64,000 bases of DNA from a virus, in the IMG/VR virus record IMGVR_UViG_3300043427_003402; one strand, written 5' to 3'. The number at the start of each line of letters is the position of its first letter. The first letter of the stretch is position 1. The notes below the pieces were generated by a model. That model was given only the letters and a program-made list of their open reading frames with translations, searched no databases and was not told the DNA's origin. A program made the position numbers and the translations under genes. This document shows, piece after piece, positions 4,218 to 38,269 of this stretch.

Positions 4218-4247
4218 TTGCATTTAGCCCAGCCTTTTTGCTAGCTT
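4218..4247 (+). promoter_or_regulatory. Sigma70-type promoter for the omegaRNA-tnpB unit
   Basis: TTGCAT (4218-4223), 18 nt, TGcTAGCTT (4239-4247); predicted start about 4253-4255, at the first base of the upstream scaffold. Confidence 0.5.
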
Positions 4248-4254
4248 AAGGCTT

Positions 4255-4348
4255 GGCCGGCCGGGCGGGTCGACCTCAATGCTCGCGGAGAGGGTAACCT
4301 CGAACCGAGAACCCAAAAGGGACGCCAACCTCAGGTTTTGCGCCTTAT
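4255..4348 (+). ncRNA. Upstream TnpB omegaRNA-like scaffold (4255-4328) plus first guide segment
   Basis: 62/74 nt identical to the scaffold overlapping the tnpB 3' end (5481-5554); substitutions are mostly in loops or compensatory. Confidence 0.75.
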
Positions 4349-4397
4349 GGGAAGCCGAAGAGCGGATCTGGCCACAGCGCGCCTTACGGGAAGCCAA
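4319..4397 (+). CRISPR. Miniature CRISPR-like repeat-spacer array upstream of tnpB (non-canonical)
   Basis: GGGACGCCAA (4319), GGGAAGCCGA (4349), GGGAAGCCAA (4388); 17-nt GCGCCTTAYGGGAAGCC at 4340-4356 and 4379-4395 separated by a unique 22-nt segment. Confidence 0.5.
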
Positions 4398-4402
4398 ACT
4401 TT

Positions 4403-5566
4403 GTGTATCAAACCTTCAAGTATCGACTCGAGCCTACCGAAGCGCAAAGAAGCACCTTTGCTCGTTTTGCGGGCAGCCGCCGTTTTATCTATAACTGGGC
4501 GCTTGCGGAGCGGATTGCCGTGTACGAACGTGATAAAGCGTCCTTGTCTTTTTTCAGCCAAAGCGCCGAGCTAACTAAGCTCAAACAGGAAGAAGACAAG
4601 GCTTGGCTAAACGAAGTGGACCGCAGAGTGCTGGTCTCGGGGCTCAAAGACTTGGACCTTGCTTTCCAAGCTTTCTTTCGACGGTTAAAGTCCAGCGAGA
4701 CGCCAGGCTTTCCGAAATTTAAAAAGAAATCACGCCGCGAGTCGTTTCGCTATGCGACAGGCGTCAAGGTACAGGACAATCGCGTTTATTTACCGAGTAT
4801 TGGCTGGGTCAAGCTGCGGCTTTCTCGCCCGGTGAAGGGTAAAATTTGTCAGGCCACGGTGCGGCAAGACGGCGAGCACTGGTTCGTTTGCCTCATCTGT
4901 GACGTACCTGCGCCCGAAGTAACCTCTGCGCCTACTGACGACGTGGTTGGCGTGGACGTCGGTATTAGCAGCTTTGCTCACCTGTCCGACGGCACGCAAA
5001 TCGAAAACCCGCGCTTCTTAGAGAGGGCTTTGGAGAAACTACAGGCGGCTCAGCAGGACTTGAGCCGCAAGACGCTGCGCTCGAATCGGTGGCGCAAGCA
5101 GGCCGCGAAGGTGGCGAAGCTGCATCGCAAAGTGCGAAATTCACGAACGGACTTTCTGCACAAGACATCCACTGACTTGGTCAAGCGCTATGACGCGCTT
5201 GCAGTCGAGACTTTGAGTATTGAAGATATGACGGTGACGGCTCACAGGAACCGGTCGCGAGCGATCGCTGACTCTAGCTGGGGCGCCTTCTTCGATAAAC
5301 TCGAATACAAAACTAAGTGGGCGGGTAAGCATTTGGTTCGCGTGGACCGGTACTACCCAAGCACTCAGTTGTGTTCATCTTGCGGTGCCCGCAAGGCCAT
5401 GCCCACCGACGTGCGCACTTATAAGTGTGACGCGTGCGGTTTGGTCATGGACCGCGATTTGAACGCAAGCCTAAACCTCAGGGCGGCAGGGCATGCCGTC
5501 CTTAATGCTCGCGGAGAGGGCGACCTTGAACCGAGAACCCGGAAGGGACGCCAATTGAACCTGTGA
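4403..5566 (+). CDS. tnpB: IS200/IS605-family RNA-guided endonuclease TnpB
   Basis: N-terminal FKYRLEPT..RFIYNWAL HTH; RuvC-I VGVDVG, RuvC-II VETL, Zn finger CSSC..CDAC, RuvC-III DRDLNASLNL; catalytic D/E/D all present. Confidence 0.95.
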   Translation: MYQTFKYRLEPTEAQRSTFARFAGSRRFIYNWALAERIAVYERDKASLSFFSQSAELTKLKQEEDKAWLNEVDRRVLVSGLKDLDLAFQAFFRRLKSSETPGFPKFKKKSRRESFRYATGVKVQDNRVYLPSIGWVKLRLSRPVKGKICQATVRQDGEHWFVCLICDVPAPEVTSAPTDDVVGVDVGISSFAHLSDGTQIENPRFLERALEKLQAAQQDLSRKTLRSNRWRKQAAKVAKLHRKVRNSRTDFLHKTSTDLVKRYDALAVETLSIEDMTVTAHRNRSRAIADSSWGAFFDKLEYKTKWAGKHLVRVDRYYPSTQLCSSCGARKAMPTDVRTYKCDACGLVMDRDLNASLNLRAAGHAVLNARGEGDLEPRTRKGRQLNL

Positions 5567-5614
5567 CCTACCCGCGTCAATTTCGGGAAGCCAATTGCCA
5601 TCCATCTCTTAACC
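5481..5614 (+). ncRNA. Downstream omegaRNA scaffold overlapping the tnpB 3' end, with guide, extra repeat and second guide
   Basis: Canonical position; hairpins GGGCGGCA/UGCCGUCC, AGG-GCGA-CCU, CCC-GGAA-GGG; GGGACGCCAATTG (5545) recurs as GGGAAGCCAATTG (5585). Confidence 0.75.
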
Positions 5615-20111: not shown

Positions 20112-20390
20112 TTGCTTTGGCTTCCGCGACACCCTTTTGACGACCCCGACGCGATCACGCAGACCGCGATGTACGACTTGCGCGACGAGCGCGAGTTCAA
20201 AGCGTACAACGAGTTGCTACGCGAGGACGGCCACACCCTGCGCATAGTGGACACCCAACACAAGTACGTATCGGAAAAGGTCACCTTTGACCGCACGGGC
20301 GCCGAGCTGGACCGCATCCCCGAGAAGTACTACGTCATCGTGACGTACAGGAAAAAACCGGAAGCGCCCGCCCGTAAACCGGAGGCTTGA
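20112..20390 (+). CDS. Hypothetical protein
   Basis: Operonic ORF with phage-like codon usage. Confidence 0.6.
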   Translation: MLWLPRHPFDDPDAITQTAMYDLRDEREFKAYNELLREDGHTLRIVDTQHKYVSEKVTFDRTGAELDRIPEKYYVIVTYRKKPEAPARKPEA

Positions 20391-21214
20391 GCGACATGCT
20401 GACACCTCGGCACCGTTACAACCGCGCGGCCATGAGTGTCGGCCTGCCCCCGGATCTTGACGGTTTAACTAACCGAGCAGCACCCGACGCGCTGACGCAA
20501 ATGGTAGAGACCGGCTTACGCGCGTGTGTTGGTGGGCAAGCCACGCGCAAACCGAAAGCCAAAGACAAAGCCCGGGGTAAGCTTATCGTTGGGCACGCAG
20601 ACTTCGCCCGCGCGTACGATCTCTACAAACAACCAGGTGCGCGCAAAACGTTCGATGCCGTGCTGCTAGCGACCTTGAGTGTAACGGACGCCGCAAACGT
20701 GCTGCGCGAAAAGGAAGCGTTTGTGCAGCTCTACGCCGACTGCTTTTTTGACATTTCGGTTTTCGAGGGCCCCACGGATCGGTTGACGTACCTCGATGCG
20801 GTCTACCGCCGCGACCCGCAGTACGCCCAGTTGCTGCGCAACATGCTGTCGGTGCCGCTTGAGCAGTTGCTGTTTATTGCAAATAGTTCGACAGGCGAGC
20901 GCTTGGACCCCAAGACGGTACTTGAAGCGGGCATGTCTTTGCATTACAATTTCATGCGGTTGTTCTCGCAGGTGAAACTAGAGACAATCATGTCGGCAGA
21001 CACGGACTCCGAAGATTACCGGCGGTTCAAGGAGATGTTCTCGATGGCGGTCACCGCGTCGAACTTGGCGCACAAGTTTGCTGACTCGCTGCTGAAGTAT
21101 GACTTGGATAAGGACCGCACCAACTTCTTGGACGAGTTTATTCTTAACCTGAGCAAGAGCAACCTTGCAGAGCACGTTTCTTTACCCGAAGCCGAAGACT
21201 TTGATATAATCTAA
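20387..21214 (+). CDS. Hypothetical protein
   Basis: GGAGG SD; overlaps the upstream stop codon. Confidence 0.65.
   Translation: MSDMLTPRHRYNRAAMSVGLPPDLDGLTNRAAPDALTQMVETGLRACVGGQATRKPKAKDKARGKLIVGHADFARAYDLYKQPGARKTFDAVLLATLSVTDAANVLREKEAFVQLYADCFFDISVFEGPTDRLTYLDAVYRRDPQYAQLLRNMLSVPLEQLLFIANSSTGERLDPKTVLEAGMSLHYNFMRLFSQVKLETIMSADTDSEDYRRFKEMFSMAVTASNLAHKFADSLLKYDLDKDRTNFLDEFILNLSKSNLAEHVSLPEAEDFDII
21202..21210 (+). promoter_or_regulatory. Consensus extended -10 promoter element
   Basis: TGATATAAT directly upstream of the orphan omegaRNA and HU-like gene. Confidence 0.5.
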
Positions 21215-21382
21215 GGGTCGGGCGATAACCAAGTCCGGCAACGGTAGAAATAAAATGGTATACCGCAGGGCATGCGGGAATTTAAGCTCGCGGAGAGGCT
21301 TAGCATTAGCGGCCTTGTCGAAACGAGAATCCCCCTGATTTAGCTGGGGGGGGGAAAGTCAAAGAGCTCTTATAAATTACGA
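21215..21382 (+). ncRNA. Orphan TnpB omegaRNA / non-autonomous IS200/IS605 right end
   Basis: Shares GCAGGGCATGC, GCTCGCGGAGAGG and GAANCGAGAA with the tnpB scaffolds; ends GAAT-CCCCC-loop-GGGGG-AAAG-TCAA (21362), the IS608-type right-end layout. Confidence 0.7.
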
Positions 21383-21389
21383 GGTTTGT

Positions 21390-21941
21390 ATGCCGCCACG
21401 TTTTTCCCTGTACAAGGCGCCCGTCACTCTCGGGTTCACCGAGGTGGAAGCGATCCTATCCGAGCGCACCGGTATCCGCCGCGACGACATCCGCCTTGTG
21501 CTGGACGAATTTTTCTACCTAGTCTTCGAGGCACTGCGCCGCGGGCACAACATTCGCTTGGCGCACATAGGCTTCTTCAACATCGTACGCACCTGGCCCC
21601 GGCTGTCGTGGAACTCTACGACCGGCAAACTGCAGTTCGTGCCGTCCGTGCATCAGGTCGGTTTTCGCGTGGCGCGCAGTACGTTGAATAAGATATTCGC
21701 TTACTTTACCAAGGGCCTTGAGCCAGTGGCACGTGAAGACTACGCTGAAGAAGTGTTACCTTATCACCTTGAGTACGCACTGCGTTCTGCGGACAAGCGG
21801 CTGTCACGAAACATGTTGGTCGATATGGAGGACTACGCGTTTTTGAAGCAGCTCGTAGAAGAGCTAAAAGAAAAAAGCCCAGAACCACCATCCTCTACCT
21901 CGTCCGAAGACGAGGTAGAAGGTGAGGAGTTGGTTACCTGA
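21390..21941 (+). CDS. HU/IHF-like DNA-binding protein with C-terminal extension
   Basis: LSERTGI..V..VLDEF..L..G..IRL..IGFF..R..WNSTTG...V.FR. Confidence 0.75.
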   Translation: MPPRFSLYKAPVTLGFTEVEAILSERTGIRRDDIRLVLDEFFYLVFEALRRGHNIRLAHIGFFNIVRTWPRLSWNSTTGKLQFVPSVHQVGFRVARSTLNKIFAYFTKGLEPVAREDYAEEVLPYHLEYALRSADKRLSRNMLVDMEDYAFLKQLVEELKEKSPEPPSSTSSEDEVEGEELVT

Positions 21942-21958
21942 AGGCCAAGTTAGATAAT

Positions 21959-22363
21959 TTACCGTCCGGTTAGTTTAAACGCGCACTTACCTTTAATAAC
22001 CACCGTGTCCCACACTAGGGTGTCCTCGTAGTAGTCCAGTTTGGCGTTCTCTGCGCCTATCCCGATGGTCACCGAGTCGCAGTGCCGCCACGCGTCCGCG
22101 AGTTCAGGATGCGTACCTTCCACGTAGAAAACTTCGGGGCCGTCGTATTCGACCGATTCGTAGTCAACGAAGCGCGGCGACCCGTCGTAACACAGGCCGC
22201 CGATCCCCGTCTCTTGGATCAAAGAGACTTCGTTCTCTACAGCCTCATTGAGCGCCTGCACAACCTTCTCGAATTGCGCGTTCCACAACTTTTCAATTTC
22301 CGGATCGTCGAAGTCGATCTCTTTATCGACCGGCATGTCAATCCTACCAATTACGTTTTGCAT
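21959..22363 (-). CDS. Acidic hypothetical protein
   Basis: AAGGAG SD before ATG 22363. Confidence 0.65.
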   Translation of the reverse strand: MQNVIGRIDMPVDKEIDFDDPEIEKLWNAQFEKVVQALNEAVENEVSLIQETGIGGLCYDGSPRFVDYESVEYDGPEVFYVEGTHPELADAWRHCDSVTIGIGAENAKLDYYEDTLVWDTVVIKGKCAFKLTGR

Positions 22364-24403: not shown

Positions 24404-24422
24404 AAGTCCTCCTGTGTACACA

Positions 24423-24445
24423 CGCCGGATTACCCGCCGGCTCGG
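24423..24445 (-). repeat. 23-bp hairpin motif, copy 1, upstream of RBS
   Basis: CGCCGGATTACCCGCCGGCTCGG, identical at three loci. Confidence 0.85.
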
Positions 24446-25980: not shown

Positions 25981-26211
25981 TCACAACCTCCGTATTTTGG
26001 ATCTTAGGCACGCGCTGCTGTAGCCATAGCCCCAGCCGTCTTCATCGTGGTTAAAACCACTGCCGTAGCCGCCACCGCCACTGTCACTGTAGCCGTCGTT
26101 ATAGCCGTCGCCGCTCCCTTCTTCGCAGCTGTCGCGGTATACACAACCCGTGCCGGTATAACCGGCGCCGTCGCCGTCGCCCCTACCAACTGGTGCAAAA
26201 CTTGGAGTCAT
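25981..26211 (-). CDS. Gly/Asp/Tyr-rich low-complexity protein
   Basis: GDG/GYG repeats; duplicate of 26208 ORF. Confidence 0.6.
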   Translation of the reverse strand: MTPSFAPVGRGDGDGAGYTGTGCVYRDSCEEGSGDGYNDGYSDSGGGGYGSGFNHDEDGWGYGYSSACLRSKIRRL

Positions 26212-26504
26212 GACAACCTCCGTAGCCCGGATCTTAGGTCCACACTGATGTAGCCGTAGCCGTCGCCGTCTTCATCGTGCCTAAAACCACTACCGGAGCC
26301 GCCACCGTCACCGTCACTATAGCCGTCGCAGCTGTCGTCGCCCCAGCCGTCGCAGCTGTCGTCGTAACCATCTCCGTAACCGTCACCGCCACTGTCAGTA
26401 TAACCGTGGCCGTTGCCCCAGCCATAACCGTAGTCGTTGCCCCAGCCGTAGCCCCAGCTGTAGCCGCTGCCGACCATCTTAAACGGGGGCATTACAGCCC
26501 CCAC
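26208..26504 (-). CDS. Gly/Asp/Tyr-rich low-complexity protein
   Basis: GYGWG/GDGYG repeats. Confidence 0.6.
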   Translation of the reverse strand: MGAVMPPFKMVGSGYSWGYGWGNDYGYGWGNGHGYTDSGGDGYGDGYDDSCDGWGDDSCDGYSDGDGGGSGSGFRHDEDGDGYGYISVDLRSGLRRLS

Positions 26505-27365: not shown

Positions 27366-27722
27366 CTAGATGGTGATGCCCTCAAGCGTAATTTTTGCCA
27401 CACCTGCACGGCCCACAGGGTAGCCGTCGGGCCAACGCTTGAGAACGACTTCTGCCTCTGGATTACTCGGACCAGGGTCCCACTCTTCGGTAAAGCAGTT
27501 TCGGCCGAACGGGTTGTACTTTACCTTGCGCCCTTCTACAGGCCCTGGGTCACTAATTAAGAACCCTTCAATCCACGCGTTAGTTTTGCCTACACCCACT
27601 TGAAACCGCACGTCAACCAGTGTGATCGTGTCGGTCTGGTCAACTGTTTTCCAGCGCCCGTTAATTTTGCGCTGTACCGACAGGGATTTGTTATTTATGC
27701 GCACTCGCACCCATGTAGTCAT
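27366..27722 (-). CDS. Hypothetical phage protein
   Basis: AGGAGG SD; L.DVRF.V..AWIEG..V.YNPF motif. Confidence 0.65.
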   Translation of the reverse strand: MTTWVRVRINNKSLSVQRKINGRWKTVDQTDTITLVDVRFQVGVGKTNAWIEGFLISDPGPVEGRKVKYNPFGRNCFTEEWDPGPSNPEAEVVLKRWPDGYPVGRAGVAKITLEGITI

Positions 27723-27734
27723 CGCGCCTCCTTT

Positions 27735-27757
27735 CGCCGGATTACCCGCCGGCTCGG
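27735..27757 (-). repeat. 23-bp hairpin motif, copy 2
   Basis: Identical to copy 1; abuts AAAGGAGG SD. Confidence 0.85.
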
Positions 27758-27766
27758 AAGTCTAGT

Positions 27767-28087
27767 CTATCGCGAGTTTTTCTCAGTGATGTACAGAATT
27801 TGCGAAAGGCTTATGTCGTTGTTACTGAAACGTTCCCCTAATGTGAAGCCGTCTTCATCGCGCATTGCCGCTTCGGCCGGCGTGCAGCCGTTTGCAGCAA
27901 GAAGAAACGCGCTTCGCGCGTCCCAACACTTAGCGTCAATGTAGTCTTCGATTGTGTCGACATCAAGATTAGTCTCGTACCATTCTTGGATGGTCTCTTC
28001 GACCTGCCCGCCATGCAGCCAGTCGCCGCCTTGTTCAACAATTCGCTCAATTTGGCTTCGCCTGTTTAAATTCAAGTAAGACGTCAT
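27767..28087 (-). CDS. Acidic hypothetical protein
   Basis: GAGGAG SD. Confidence 0.6.
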   Translation of the reverse strand: MTSYLNLNRRSQIERIVEQGGDWLHGGQVEETIQEWYETNLDVDTIEDYIDAKCWDARSAFLLAANGCTPAEAAMRDEDGFTLGERFSNNDISLSQILYITEKNSR

Positions 28088-28099
28088 TGTTGCTCCTCA

Positions 28100-28122
28100 C
28101 GCCGGATTACCCGCCGGCTCGG
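28100..28122 (-). repeat. 23-bp hairpin motif, copy 3
   Basis: Identical to copy 1; abuts GAGGAG SD. Confidence 0.85.
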
Positions 28123-36814: not shown

Positions 36815-37370
36815 CTAAAGGAAAAACCTTATTTCGCCGGCGCGAGCTGGCGATGAGGGAAATAACCATCACGCACACACACGCTCCCTACTAAGGAAGT
36901 GAATGTGAATGATAGTTATTCCCCTCATCGCCAGCCCGCGCTGACTCAGGGTGCCACGTATTTATCCTGCGCCCGTGACGGCGCGGAGCTAAAGGAAAAA
37001 CCTTATTTGCCAGCGCGAGCTGGCGACGAGAAGAATAACCATCACGCACACGCGCACGCACATACTCCCTCTTAAGGAAGTAAATGTGAGTGTGAATGTG
37101 AATGATAGTTATTCCCCTCATCGCCAGCCCGCGCTGACTCAGGGTGCCACGTATTTATCCTGCGCCCGTGACGGCGCGGAGCTAAAGGAAAAACCTTATT
37201 TGCCAGCGCGAGCTGGCGACGAGAAGAATAACCATCACGCACACGCGCACGCACATACTCCCTCTTAAGGAAGTAAATGTGAGTGTGAATGTGAATGATA
37301 GTTATTCCCCTCATCGCCAGCCCGCGCTGACTCAGGGTGCCACGTATTTATCCTGCGCCCGTGACGGCGC
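36815..37370 (-). ncRNA. Three tandem 174-193 bp units, each a long rod-like hairpin RNA
   Basis: Units start at 36815, 36989 and 37182; units 2 and 3 identical; 37 contiguous bp with 7 G.U pairs only on the minus strand. Confidence 0.7.
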
Positions 37371-37375
37371 AAAAA

Positions 37376-38269
37376 TTAGATCAATTTCTTTTCGAGCATC
37401 TCCTTTCGTGCCCTTTTGGCGGCACTGAGGCTGCCACCAAGGCAGCCGTGCGCTTTCGCGATGTTCGCGATTTGCTGCGCTTGGTCCCTTGATAAGGACC
37501 GACCACTCCATTTTATTTCACCTTGGTCCCTCTCCGGGACCAAGGTGAATCCGTAGGCCGTTGGCCCAACCCATAACACAGTTGCCTCGCCCGGTCCGTT
37601 CCGGACCGCGGTCCTTAAGCCGACCGCTTCTTGCGCCCGAGCACAGGCGCTTTGCGCGGCTTCCGCCGCACCGAAGGCTTTTGTCCGGCTTTCGCCGGAC
37701 AAAAGCCAGGCGGCCTTTTCGGCCGCTTCTTCTGCCTGGCGGAGGAGGCTGACAGCCTCCTCCGCGTCTTCGACGGCCGCTTTGCCGTCGAGGACGCCCC
37801 AATCAACTTGGTCGGCGACCCCCGCCGCCGTTAGCGCGTCGCGGAACGCGCTCAGGTGCCGACTTCCAAACCCTTGTTCACGGGTCAGGGGCCCGTCTAA
37901 ATCGTATGGGTCGTAACACAACACCACGCACGACTCCGCCGCCGCGCCCCGCCCCCGACGCGCCCCGCCCGTGGGGCGATGGATCTCGACCCGGACTTGC
38001 CCGTCCGGGTAGACACACCATCGAGTCCGCCCGGTGCTTGTCTCGTGGTAAACTGCGTGGTCCTCATTAAAGTGGTCAAACCGGTATGCGGGACCCCATG
38101 TCCCGTGGCTCATGCCACAGGCCGCCATAGCGGCCGCCGCTATGGCGGCTTCCGTTTTAAGTTGGAGCACCTGCTCCAGCGCTAGGCTTGTCGCCCACTC
38201 GTGCCCGAAGGCACGGGCCACTTTGTAGGCCGTCTCTAATTGTTTTTCTGTGAATCCTTGGAAACCCAT
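37376..38269 (-). CDS. Hypothetical protein (first gene of the minus-strand cluster)
   Basis: Long ORF; AAGGCGG before ATG 38269. Confidence 0.6.
   Translation of the reverse strand: MGFQGFTEKQLETAYKVARAFGHEWATSLALEQVLQLKTEAAIAAAAMAACGMSHGTWGPAYRFDHFNEDHAVYHETSTGRTRWCVYPDGQVRVEIHRPTGGARRGRGAAAESCVVLCYDPYDLDGPLTREQGFGSRHLSAFRDALTAAGVADQVDWGVLDGKAAVEDAEEAVSLLRQAEEAAEKAAWLLSGESRTKAFGAAEAAQSACARAQEAVGLRTAVRNGPGEATVLWVGPTAYGFTLVPERDQGEIKWSGRSLSRDQAQQIANIAKAHGCLGGSLSAAKRARKEMLEKKLI

Follow-up and report, generated by a model that had tools for sequence, protein, structure and literature searches.

A candidate non-autonomous IS608-like element carrying a TnpB guide RNA, polymorphic among sibling freshwater phages

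Free-standing homing endonucleases and marker exclusion are known from the T-even phages. The right-end tetranucleotides of IS608 have been given as TCAA (CR) and GAAT (GR) (PMC5934647), and the omegaRNA of ISDra2 has been reported to contain four stems (1-4), with bases -5 to -3 and the loop of stem 1 forming a pseudoknot (PMC10097598). PATEs that bear an omegaRNA and need TnpB in trans have already been described (Meers et al. 2023, PMC10055086). Moreover, non-restorative homing of transposons, independent of TnpA and including homing between co-infecting phages, has been proposed (PMC13565253).

In this study, we analyzed a 64-kb window (the whole stretch of DNA, 64,000 nt), which comes from the genome of a tailed phage in freshwater metagenomes and encodes a baseplate wedge, tail sheath, DUF927 primase-helicase, PolA and UvrD helicase. 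Three repeat regions were recorded elsewhere in the window, namely three tandem copies of a 193-nt unit at 36899-37477, two identical and the third 63% alike (D2); dense 12-nt periodic repeats resembling GCCGTAGCCGCC at 25983-26476, split into two blocks with 230 nt between them (D1, D3-D5), which probably code for a repetitive protein; and a 40-nt motif ending in CGCCGGATTACCCGCCGGCTCGG with a short palindrome inside (24406-24445, 27718-27757 and 28083-28122; D7), which may be a regulatory or terminator element. An earlier note, made from the sequence of the window, had pointed to an orphan omegaRNA just upstream of an HU-like gene. The segment and its neighbors are listed below, all on the plus strand.

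20387..21214, plus strand: conserved phage gene, function not assigned, with its last four codons replaced by the element
21202..21362, plus strand: inserted element, 161 nt, gene-less, left edge +/-2 nt
21202-21210, plus strand: extended -10 promoter-like motif TGATATAAT, 10/12 with TG in the promoter scan, putative promoter function
21217-21223 with 21233-21239, plus strand: 5' hairpin GTCGGGC/GTCCGGC, folding into 7 pairs, 2 of them G-U
21263..21277, plus strand: omegaRNA stem 1 (CCGCA/TGCGG) with loop GGGCA, ISDra2-type architecture (PMC10097598)
21269-21271, plus strand: loop bases within the stem-1 loop, 5' strand of the pseudoknot
21287..21327, plus strand: omegaRNA stem 2, CTCG at 21287-21290 with CGAG at 21324-21327, covarying CG/UA pairs in the model alignment
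about 21293-21319, plus strand: long omegaRNA stem 3, enclosed by stem 2 in the model alignment
21327..21362, plus strand: IS608-type right end, made up of GAAT, a subterminal hairpin and then AAAGTCAA
21327-21330, plus strand: GAAT, directly 5' of the terminal hairpin
21331-21354, plus strand: terminal hairpin, which is also omegaRNA stem 4, CCCCC at 21331-21335 with the nine-G run at 21346-21354
21358-21360, plus strand: 3' strand of the pseudoknot, GTC, pairing with 21269-21271 (GGC)
21359-21362, plus strand: cleavage tetranucleotide TCAA, with the element boundary exactly after 21362
21363..21382, plus strand: guide-equivalent right flank AGAGCTCTTATAAATTACGA, also the 5' UTR of the HU-like gene
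21390..21941, plus strand: gene for an HU-like DNA-binding protein (Pfam PF00216)

The arrangement of these parts suggests that the element consists of a single complete TnpB guide RNA and its promoter, with no protein gene, and that it is a relative of the IS608-type elements. The GAAT-hairpin-TCAA right end and the 20-mer directly after it, as described in the earlier note, were all found at 21327-21382, and the two tetranucleotides agree with the published GR and CR of IS608 (PMC5934647); GAAT, a hairpin, 8-12 nt and then TCAA follow each other in the same way in the right ends of the relatives. The proposed 5' hairpin also folds as described, into 7 pairs. The TGnTATAAT that had been placed just upstream of the element is present, but it forms the first nine bases of the element itself, and a transcript start near 21217 is predicted from this extended -10 promoter-like motif. 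When both strands of the window were scanned, TGNTATAAT was present only twice, one occurrence being the left end of the element. The segment had further been called intergenic, which is correct only in part, as it overlaps the end of the ORF at 20387-21214 and supplies its stop codon.

Logan contigs from four freshwater runs were aligned to window 20300-22300. In a 910-nt contig of a sibling with ~97% identity, 21199 is joined to 21363, with 163 nt skipped and CT between. The same junction, reading GAAGACCT directly followed by AGAGCTC, occurs in a 910-nt contig fetched via the HU-like protein (L206), presumably the same contig. The 20 nt equivalent to the guide are identical at 20/20 positions in this empty-site allele, with GAAGACCT just before them. 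Judged against the empty allele, the right edge of the insertion lies exactly after TCAA, and the element has neither a target-site duplication nor terminal inverted repeats. In three more distant relatives, with HU-like proteins 74, 63 and 59% identical, no element is present and the two genes are separated by 7-14 nt, as against 175 nt in the window. No relatives of the HU-like protein were found in IMG/VR or the JGI metagenomes. The upstream protein ends in DFDII* in the filled allele versus DLELL* in the empty allele, and in ELDLV* and PLELV* in relatives; the C-terminus L[ED]L[LV]* is thus common to the empty allele and the relatives with available DNA (L207 and L208). Because the distant relatives keep both the short gene spacing and this C-terminus, the empty state is ancestral. 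Looking for empty-site alleles in related phages had been put forward in the earlier note as a check on the locus, and this gave a clear result, with an empty allele in the 97% sibling and the segment absent in distant relatives. The element is a recent, discrete insertion that is polymorphic among sibling phages.

A second copy was found on a 30-kb contig from the same run as the empty-site contig, at greater depth and with unrelated flanks. This copy corresponds to 21205-21349, shows 9 differences in these 145 nt (~94% identical) and ends in GTCAA; its left end is TGTTATAAT, with the extended -10 motif preserved, and its flank at the left is GCGTTCTG. One of the differences, 21270 G>A, changes a G-U pair of the pseudoknot to A-U. 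The boundaries of both copies are equal within 1-3 nt and the flanks diverge immediately outside. An empty site together with a copy in other flanks with the same GTCAA end bears out one of the two options offered earlier, that of a non-autonomous mini-IS. Only these two copies of the element are known, and no further copies were found in IMG/VR, the JGI metagenomes or INPHARED. In two other runs, the filled alleles lack 1 nt of the 5' hairpin, and their G run is shorter by 3 nt; these indels could reflect relaxed constraint. Two Logan contigs of the same strain (L002 and L004) have their position 1 inside the element, at ~21250, and the contigs of another run end at 21189 and resume at 21363; the assembly graphs branch at the element, which is the expected behavior where an element is repeated or polymorphic.

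The identity of the RNA was examined with a covariance model (R1) that was built only from the tnpB-linked omegaRNAs of L223, L220 and L222, with the element left out. The model matches exactly three places in the 64-kb window. The top match is the element (21259-21362, 56.3 bits, E 2e-10, full length), and the other two are scaffold B, inside tnpB (41.9 bits), and scaffold A, upstream of tnpB (26.3 bits). The covariance-model scan and the search for further copies, which had been suggested beforehand, therefore returned three omegaRNA places with the element scoring best, and by this measure window 21202-21362 is the third omegaRNA scaffold copy in the window. In an alignment of 20 family members fitted to the model, 91.7% of cells pair, versus 41-45% with slid partners, and 31/36 pairs change on both sides. 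The pseudoknot helix, which is absent from the model, is 95% paired with 3/3 pairs covarying in the 20 sequences. Helices 1-4 and the pseudoknot are all intact in the element. Unlike the usual omegaRNA, the element does not overlap any tnpB 3' end, and the sole tnpB of the window is 15.6 kb away. The tnpB 3' ends of L223, L220 and L222 nearly read like the element, with the core, a long stem 3 (beginning GGCTTAGCAATGGCGGC), GAAT, a CCCC(N10)GGGG hairpin after it and, last, AnnGTCAA. Model matches in L016 and L059 were considered as other orphans and rejected, as both lie at the 3' end of a tnpB.

Database searches were carried out at several levels. An Rfam scan of the element gave nothing at gathering scores and nothing relevant at permissive thresholds, the sole match being a viral pseudoknot on the terminal hairpin at chance level (E 0.94). 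No match to the element was obtained from INPHARED phages in near and distant modes, and scans of IMG/VR with motifs from the core, the 5' module and the right end in its long form gave none either. A motif scan of genome contigs gave 120 matches, about the chance number and none beside tnpB, and a JGI metagenome scan with a tighter motif gave 8 matches, which had no flanking structure or tnpB; all of them were rejected.

Blocks common to the element and both tnpB scaffolds had been noted earlier, and they are present and collinear in all three copies. By window search, GCAGGGCATGC (21265-21275) has a second occurrence at 5486, GCTCGCGGAGAGG (21286-21298) has further occurrences at 4281 and 5507, and GAANCGAGAA (21320-21329) has further occurrences at 4302 and 5528. 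For GAANCGAGAA, 4 matches were counted versus 0.6 expected, and at least 4 were reached in 0/100 shuffles. The core of the element, the part in contact with the protein, is 80% identical to scaffold B, versus 59-70% to the scaffolds of the relatives. The features of the tnpB locus, again on the plus strand, are as follows.

4250..4328, plus strand: compact omegaRNA scaffold A, upstream of tnpB (model alignment, repeat families D8 and D9)
4403..5566, plus strand: tnpB, ISDra2-like, the sole one in this window, candidate partner in trans
5476..5554, plus strand: compact omegaRNA scaffold B, inside the tnpB 3' end (model alignment, repeat families D8 and D9)

The window TnpB aligns to ISDra2 TnpB over 359 residues (E 2e-83) and contains the RuvC D-E-D triad and the zinc-finger cysteines. 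Its triad aligns with D191, E278 and D361 of ISDra2. A TldR-type nuclease-dead repressor with a guide was considered and ruled out, as the RuvC catalytic residues are kept. The nearest public TnpB relatives are 55-58% identical, and three of their loci were fetched, L223 (tnpA + tnpB), L220 and L222 (Stenomitos MAG). L223 carries a Y1 tnpA, so the TnpB family does have one. In the 64-kb window no tnpA was found; the search for other tnpB and tnpA genes, also advised in the earlier note, ended with the single tnpB at 4403-5566 and no tnpA. The longest contig carrying the window TnpB is 159 kb. The protein differs from its nearest relatives at the positions equivalent to the ISDra2 TAM contacts K76, F77 and Q80, and its TAM is therefore not inferable from the relatives; judging from these residues, TTGAT is unlikely to be the TAM of the window TnpB.

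Scaffolds A and B are shorter forms of the same RNA. In both, stem 3 has been cut to 3 pairs below a GNRA tetraloop, which is GTAA or GCGA, and CCC-NNNN-GGG is all that is left of stem 4; in scaffold B the stem-3 loop is GCGA and stem 4 is CCC-GGAA-GGG. As L223, L220 and L222 all have a long stem 3 and a long terminal hairpin, like the element, the outgroups show the long form to be the family norm, and A and B are the trimmed ones. The element had been proposed to show the ancestral long form, which is supported at the level of the family; descent of the compact scaffolds from this very copy would go beyond that result. With stem 4 cut to three pairs the TnpA-binding hairpin is gone, and given this loss the window tnpB is probably immobile. 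Engineered ISDra2 Trim2 (PMC10097598) shows the same kind of stem-3 change. A sibling tnpB locus with 94% identity came from a run in the accession series that also contains the empty allele. In this sibling (L224:1-152 versus window 4238-4402) scaffold A is kept and the following ~70 nt are largely replaced and 13 nt shorter, and the tnpB coding region and scaffold B are ~95-99% alike to the window. Model R1 prefers scaffold B ending at the second GGGAAGCCAA (5585-5594), with 5546-5582 as a stem-4 insertion; given this alternative end (window 5476-5594), the right end of the tnpB unit is ambiguous. The tnpB at L220:1205-2684 (55% identical, on a contig of 164 kb) directly adjoins the ORF before it and has no recognizable left end, yet its long-form omegaRNA is complete and its GTCAA end is present; it may be another immobilized TnpB.

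The left end of the element is less regular than its right end. In L222, L020 and L033 the left and right hairpins match and the left hairpin is 16 nt from the target; L222 has AAAG before the left hairpin and a TTAC flank, as in IS608. The left hairpin of the element (GTCGGGC/GTCCGGC) is unlike its right-end CCCCC/GGGGG hairpin, and it lies 15 nt from the left edge, a left-end-like geometry when set against the 16 nt of the relatives. The 5' 61 nt of the element showed no similarity above shuffles to the left ends of the relatives or to tnpB coding sequence, and on the same ground the 5' half was rejected both as the decayed remnant of a tnpB 3' end and as a left end that has diverged. TTAC, the target suggested by L222 as the closest full element, does not precede the insertion; in the empty site the guide is preceded by GACCT. 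With this GACCT flank, and with the flank of the second copy different again, TnpA targeting and TnpB TAM recognition are not assured. Two other signs were examined and dismissed. TTAC at 21182-21185, 16 nt before the insertion point, was considered as a trace of TnpB cutting, and the second copy has no TTAC there; TTGAT at 21201-21205, considered as an ISDra2-type target, cannot be reconciled with the empty allele or with the conserved end of the upstream protein. The mode of transposition is taken to be that of IS608 because the right end is IS608-like and there is no duplication and no inverted repeat.

Based on the above, we put the probability at roughly 0.55 that the element is a non-autonomous, gene-less, IS608-like derivative of the IS200/IS605 family, PATE-like in character, which homes through its RNA with TnpB supplied in trans. 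A selfish mini-IS with a trans TnpB is favored because of the 20/20 guide match, the intact TnpB, the 80% core identity and the precedents. The element recently entered the final codons of a conserved phage gene, just ahead of the HU-like gene. According to this proposal, its own promoter would drive a ~146 nt scaffold transcript reading into the right flank, of which the first 16-20 nt would act as guide. The RNA would be bound by a TnpB provided in trans, and the most obvious candidate is the intact TnpB encoded at 4403-5566 of the same phage, which has no tnpA in the window. The complex would cut alleles that lack the element, whether these belong to a sibling phage in the same infection or have arisen by excision. 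The cut allele would then receive the element through recombinational repair, resulting in homing or retention, and a Y1 TnpA encoded elsewhere would be required for transposition to new sites. The trans-acting guide, the other option offered in the earlier note, may thus be how the mini-IS benefits. We infer the expression of the element, its loading onto TnpB, the TAM fit, cleavage and the transposase. The weak link of homing is the TAM, as acceptance of GACCT by the window TnpB is not derivable from the sequence. A stronger version, in which the omegaRNA and the phage TnpB would act as an RNA-guided gene drive, using a non-TTAC TAM to cut element-less siblings and giving TnpA-independent homing or marker exclusion, seems unlikely. 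If it were true, the element and the surrounding genome would spread during co-infection, and the element with scaffolds A and B would form a small detachable set of guide cassettes for one nuclease.

Other explanations deserve consideration. The insertion may be that of a real mini-IS whose omegaRNA is no longer used by any TnpB, an inert hitchhiker with a changed upstream C-terminus, 161 extra bases and perhaps a new promoter before the HU-like gene as its effects. The left flank has no TTAC, so that the empty allele would escape a TnpB of the TTAC type, and the non-canonical left end, the small indels in the 5' hairpin and G run of other populations and the window without tnpA point in the same direction; yet an unused RNA is hard to match with intact helices and pseudoknot, a model score above that of the tnpB-embedded scaffold, a promoter motif preserved in both copies, a second copy whose one known loop change improves a pseudoknot pair, and core blocks letter-identical to the scaffold of the resident TnpB. 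We regard disuse as unlikely for these reasons. Another possibility is that scaffolds A and B and the element are exapted guide cassettes which, with the transposase-less TnpB, would serve as a weapon or a means of exclusion against related phages, the element being retained because its guide targets siblings that lack it. Such a function would be consistent with a guide equal to the empty allele of the sibling (20/20), with an intact TnpB conserved together with scaffolds A and B in the 94% sibling where the sequence after A is strongly different, and with a tnpB that has trimmed ends and no tnpA. However, an element that is polymorphic and also present in an unrelated contig resembles a selfish mobile element and not a fixed host function, its guide is simply its flank, as for any insertion of the IS605 family, and the TAM-contact residues of the window TnpB differ from those of the relatives, so that its TAM is not inferable. 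Exaptation thus appears quite improbable.

Transposition itself may also be questioned, as the canonical left end and the TTAC target are both absent, and a tnpB right-end fragment could have been placed here by illegitimate or homologous phage recombination, and the second copy likewise. This would leave the sharing of two boundaries within 1-3 nt by copies whose flanks differ immediately outside, the right boundary exactly at an IS608-type cleavage site, and a hairpin 15 nt inside the left edge, where L222, L020 and L033 have 16 nt, to be explained otherwise, and we consider such an origin very improbable. The homing mini-IS therefore remains the reading that we prefer.

The locus offers a guide-RNA-only transposon derivative with a filled allele, an exact empty allele and a second copy, all in freshwater phages. 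Its genome has an intact TnpB and no transposase in the window, which makes the idea of TnpA-free homing by TnpB and omegaRNA testable on defined sequences. The full-length omegaRNA beside two trimmed ones is a natural comparison useful for work on minimal scaffolds, and the natural trimming partly resembles engineered ISDra2 Trim2, with stem 3 cut back to a tetraloop.

Compared with known systems, the element is closest in form to the ISGst PATEs of Geobacillus stearothermophilus (PMC10055086), which likewise have no protein gene, combine transposon ends with an omegaRNA for a TnpB encoded elsewhere, and are non-autonomous, with TnpA needed in trans (as we also infer for the element). It differs from them in being phage-borne, in a left end unlike the right, in an extended -10 that forms its first 9 nt, in not lying beside a TTAC target, and in the presence of both filled and empty alleles in natural populations. 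With Helicobacter pylori IS608 it shares GAAT 5' of a subterminal hairpin, TCAA ~10 nt 3' with the boundary after TCAA, and the absence of target duplication and inverted repeats, whereas it has no tnpA or tnpB inside and lacks the left-end AAAG and the TTAC target. Like the ISDra2 TnpB-omegaRNA (PDB 8EXA, 8H1J; PMC10097598), its RNA has stems 1-4, a pseudoknot and a guide right after the scaffold; in contrast, the RNA gene is 15.6 kb from tnpB with its own predicted promoter, and the TAM-contact positions of the window TnpB differ. The T-even homing endonucleases are comparable in the proposed outcome only, in which a nuclease cuts the element-less co-infecting allele and repair copies the element; recognition here would be RNA-guided rather than by protein, and homing is a proposal. 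Guide-only IS elements are already known from bacteria, and the element is a clean natural example of them, not a new type of system; what is unusual here is the odd left end and that the filled and empty alleles have both been captured in nature.
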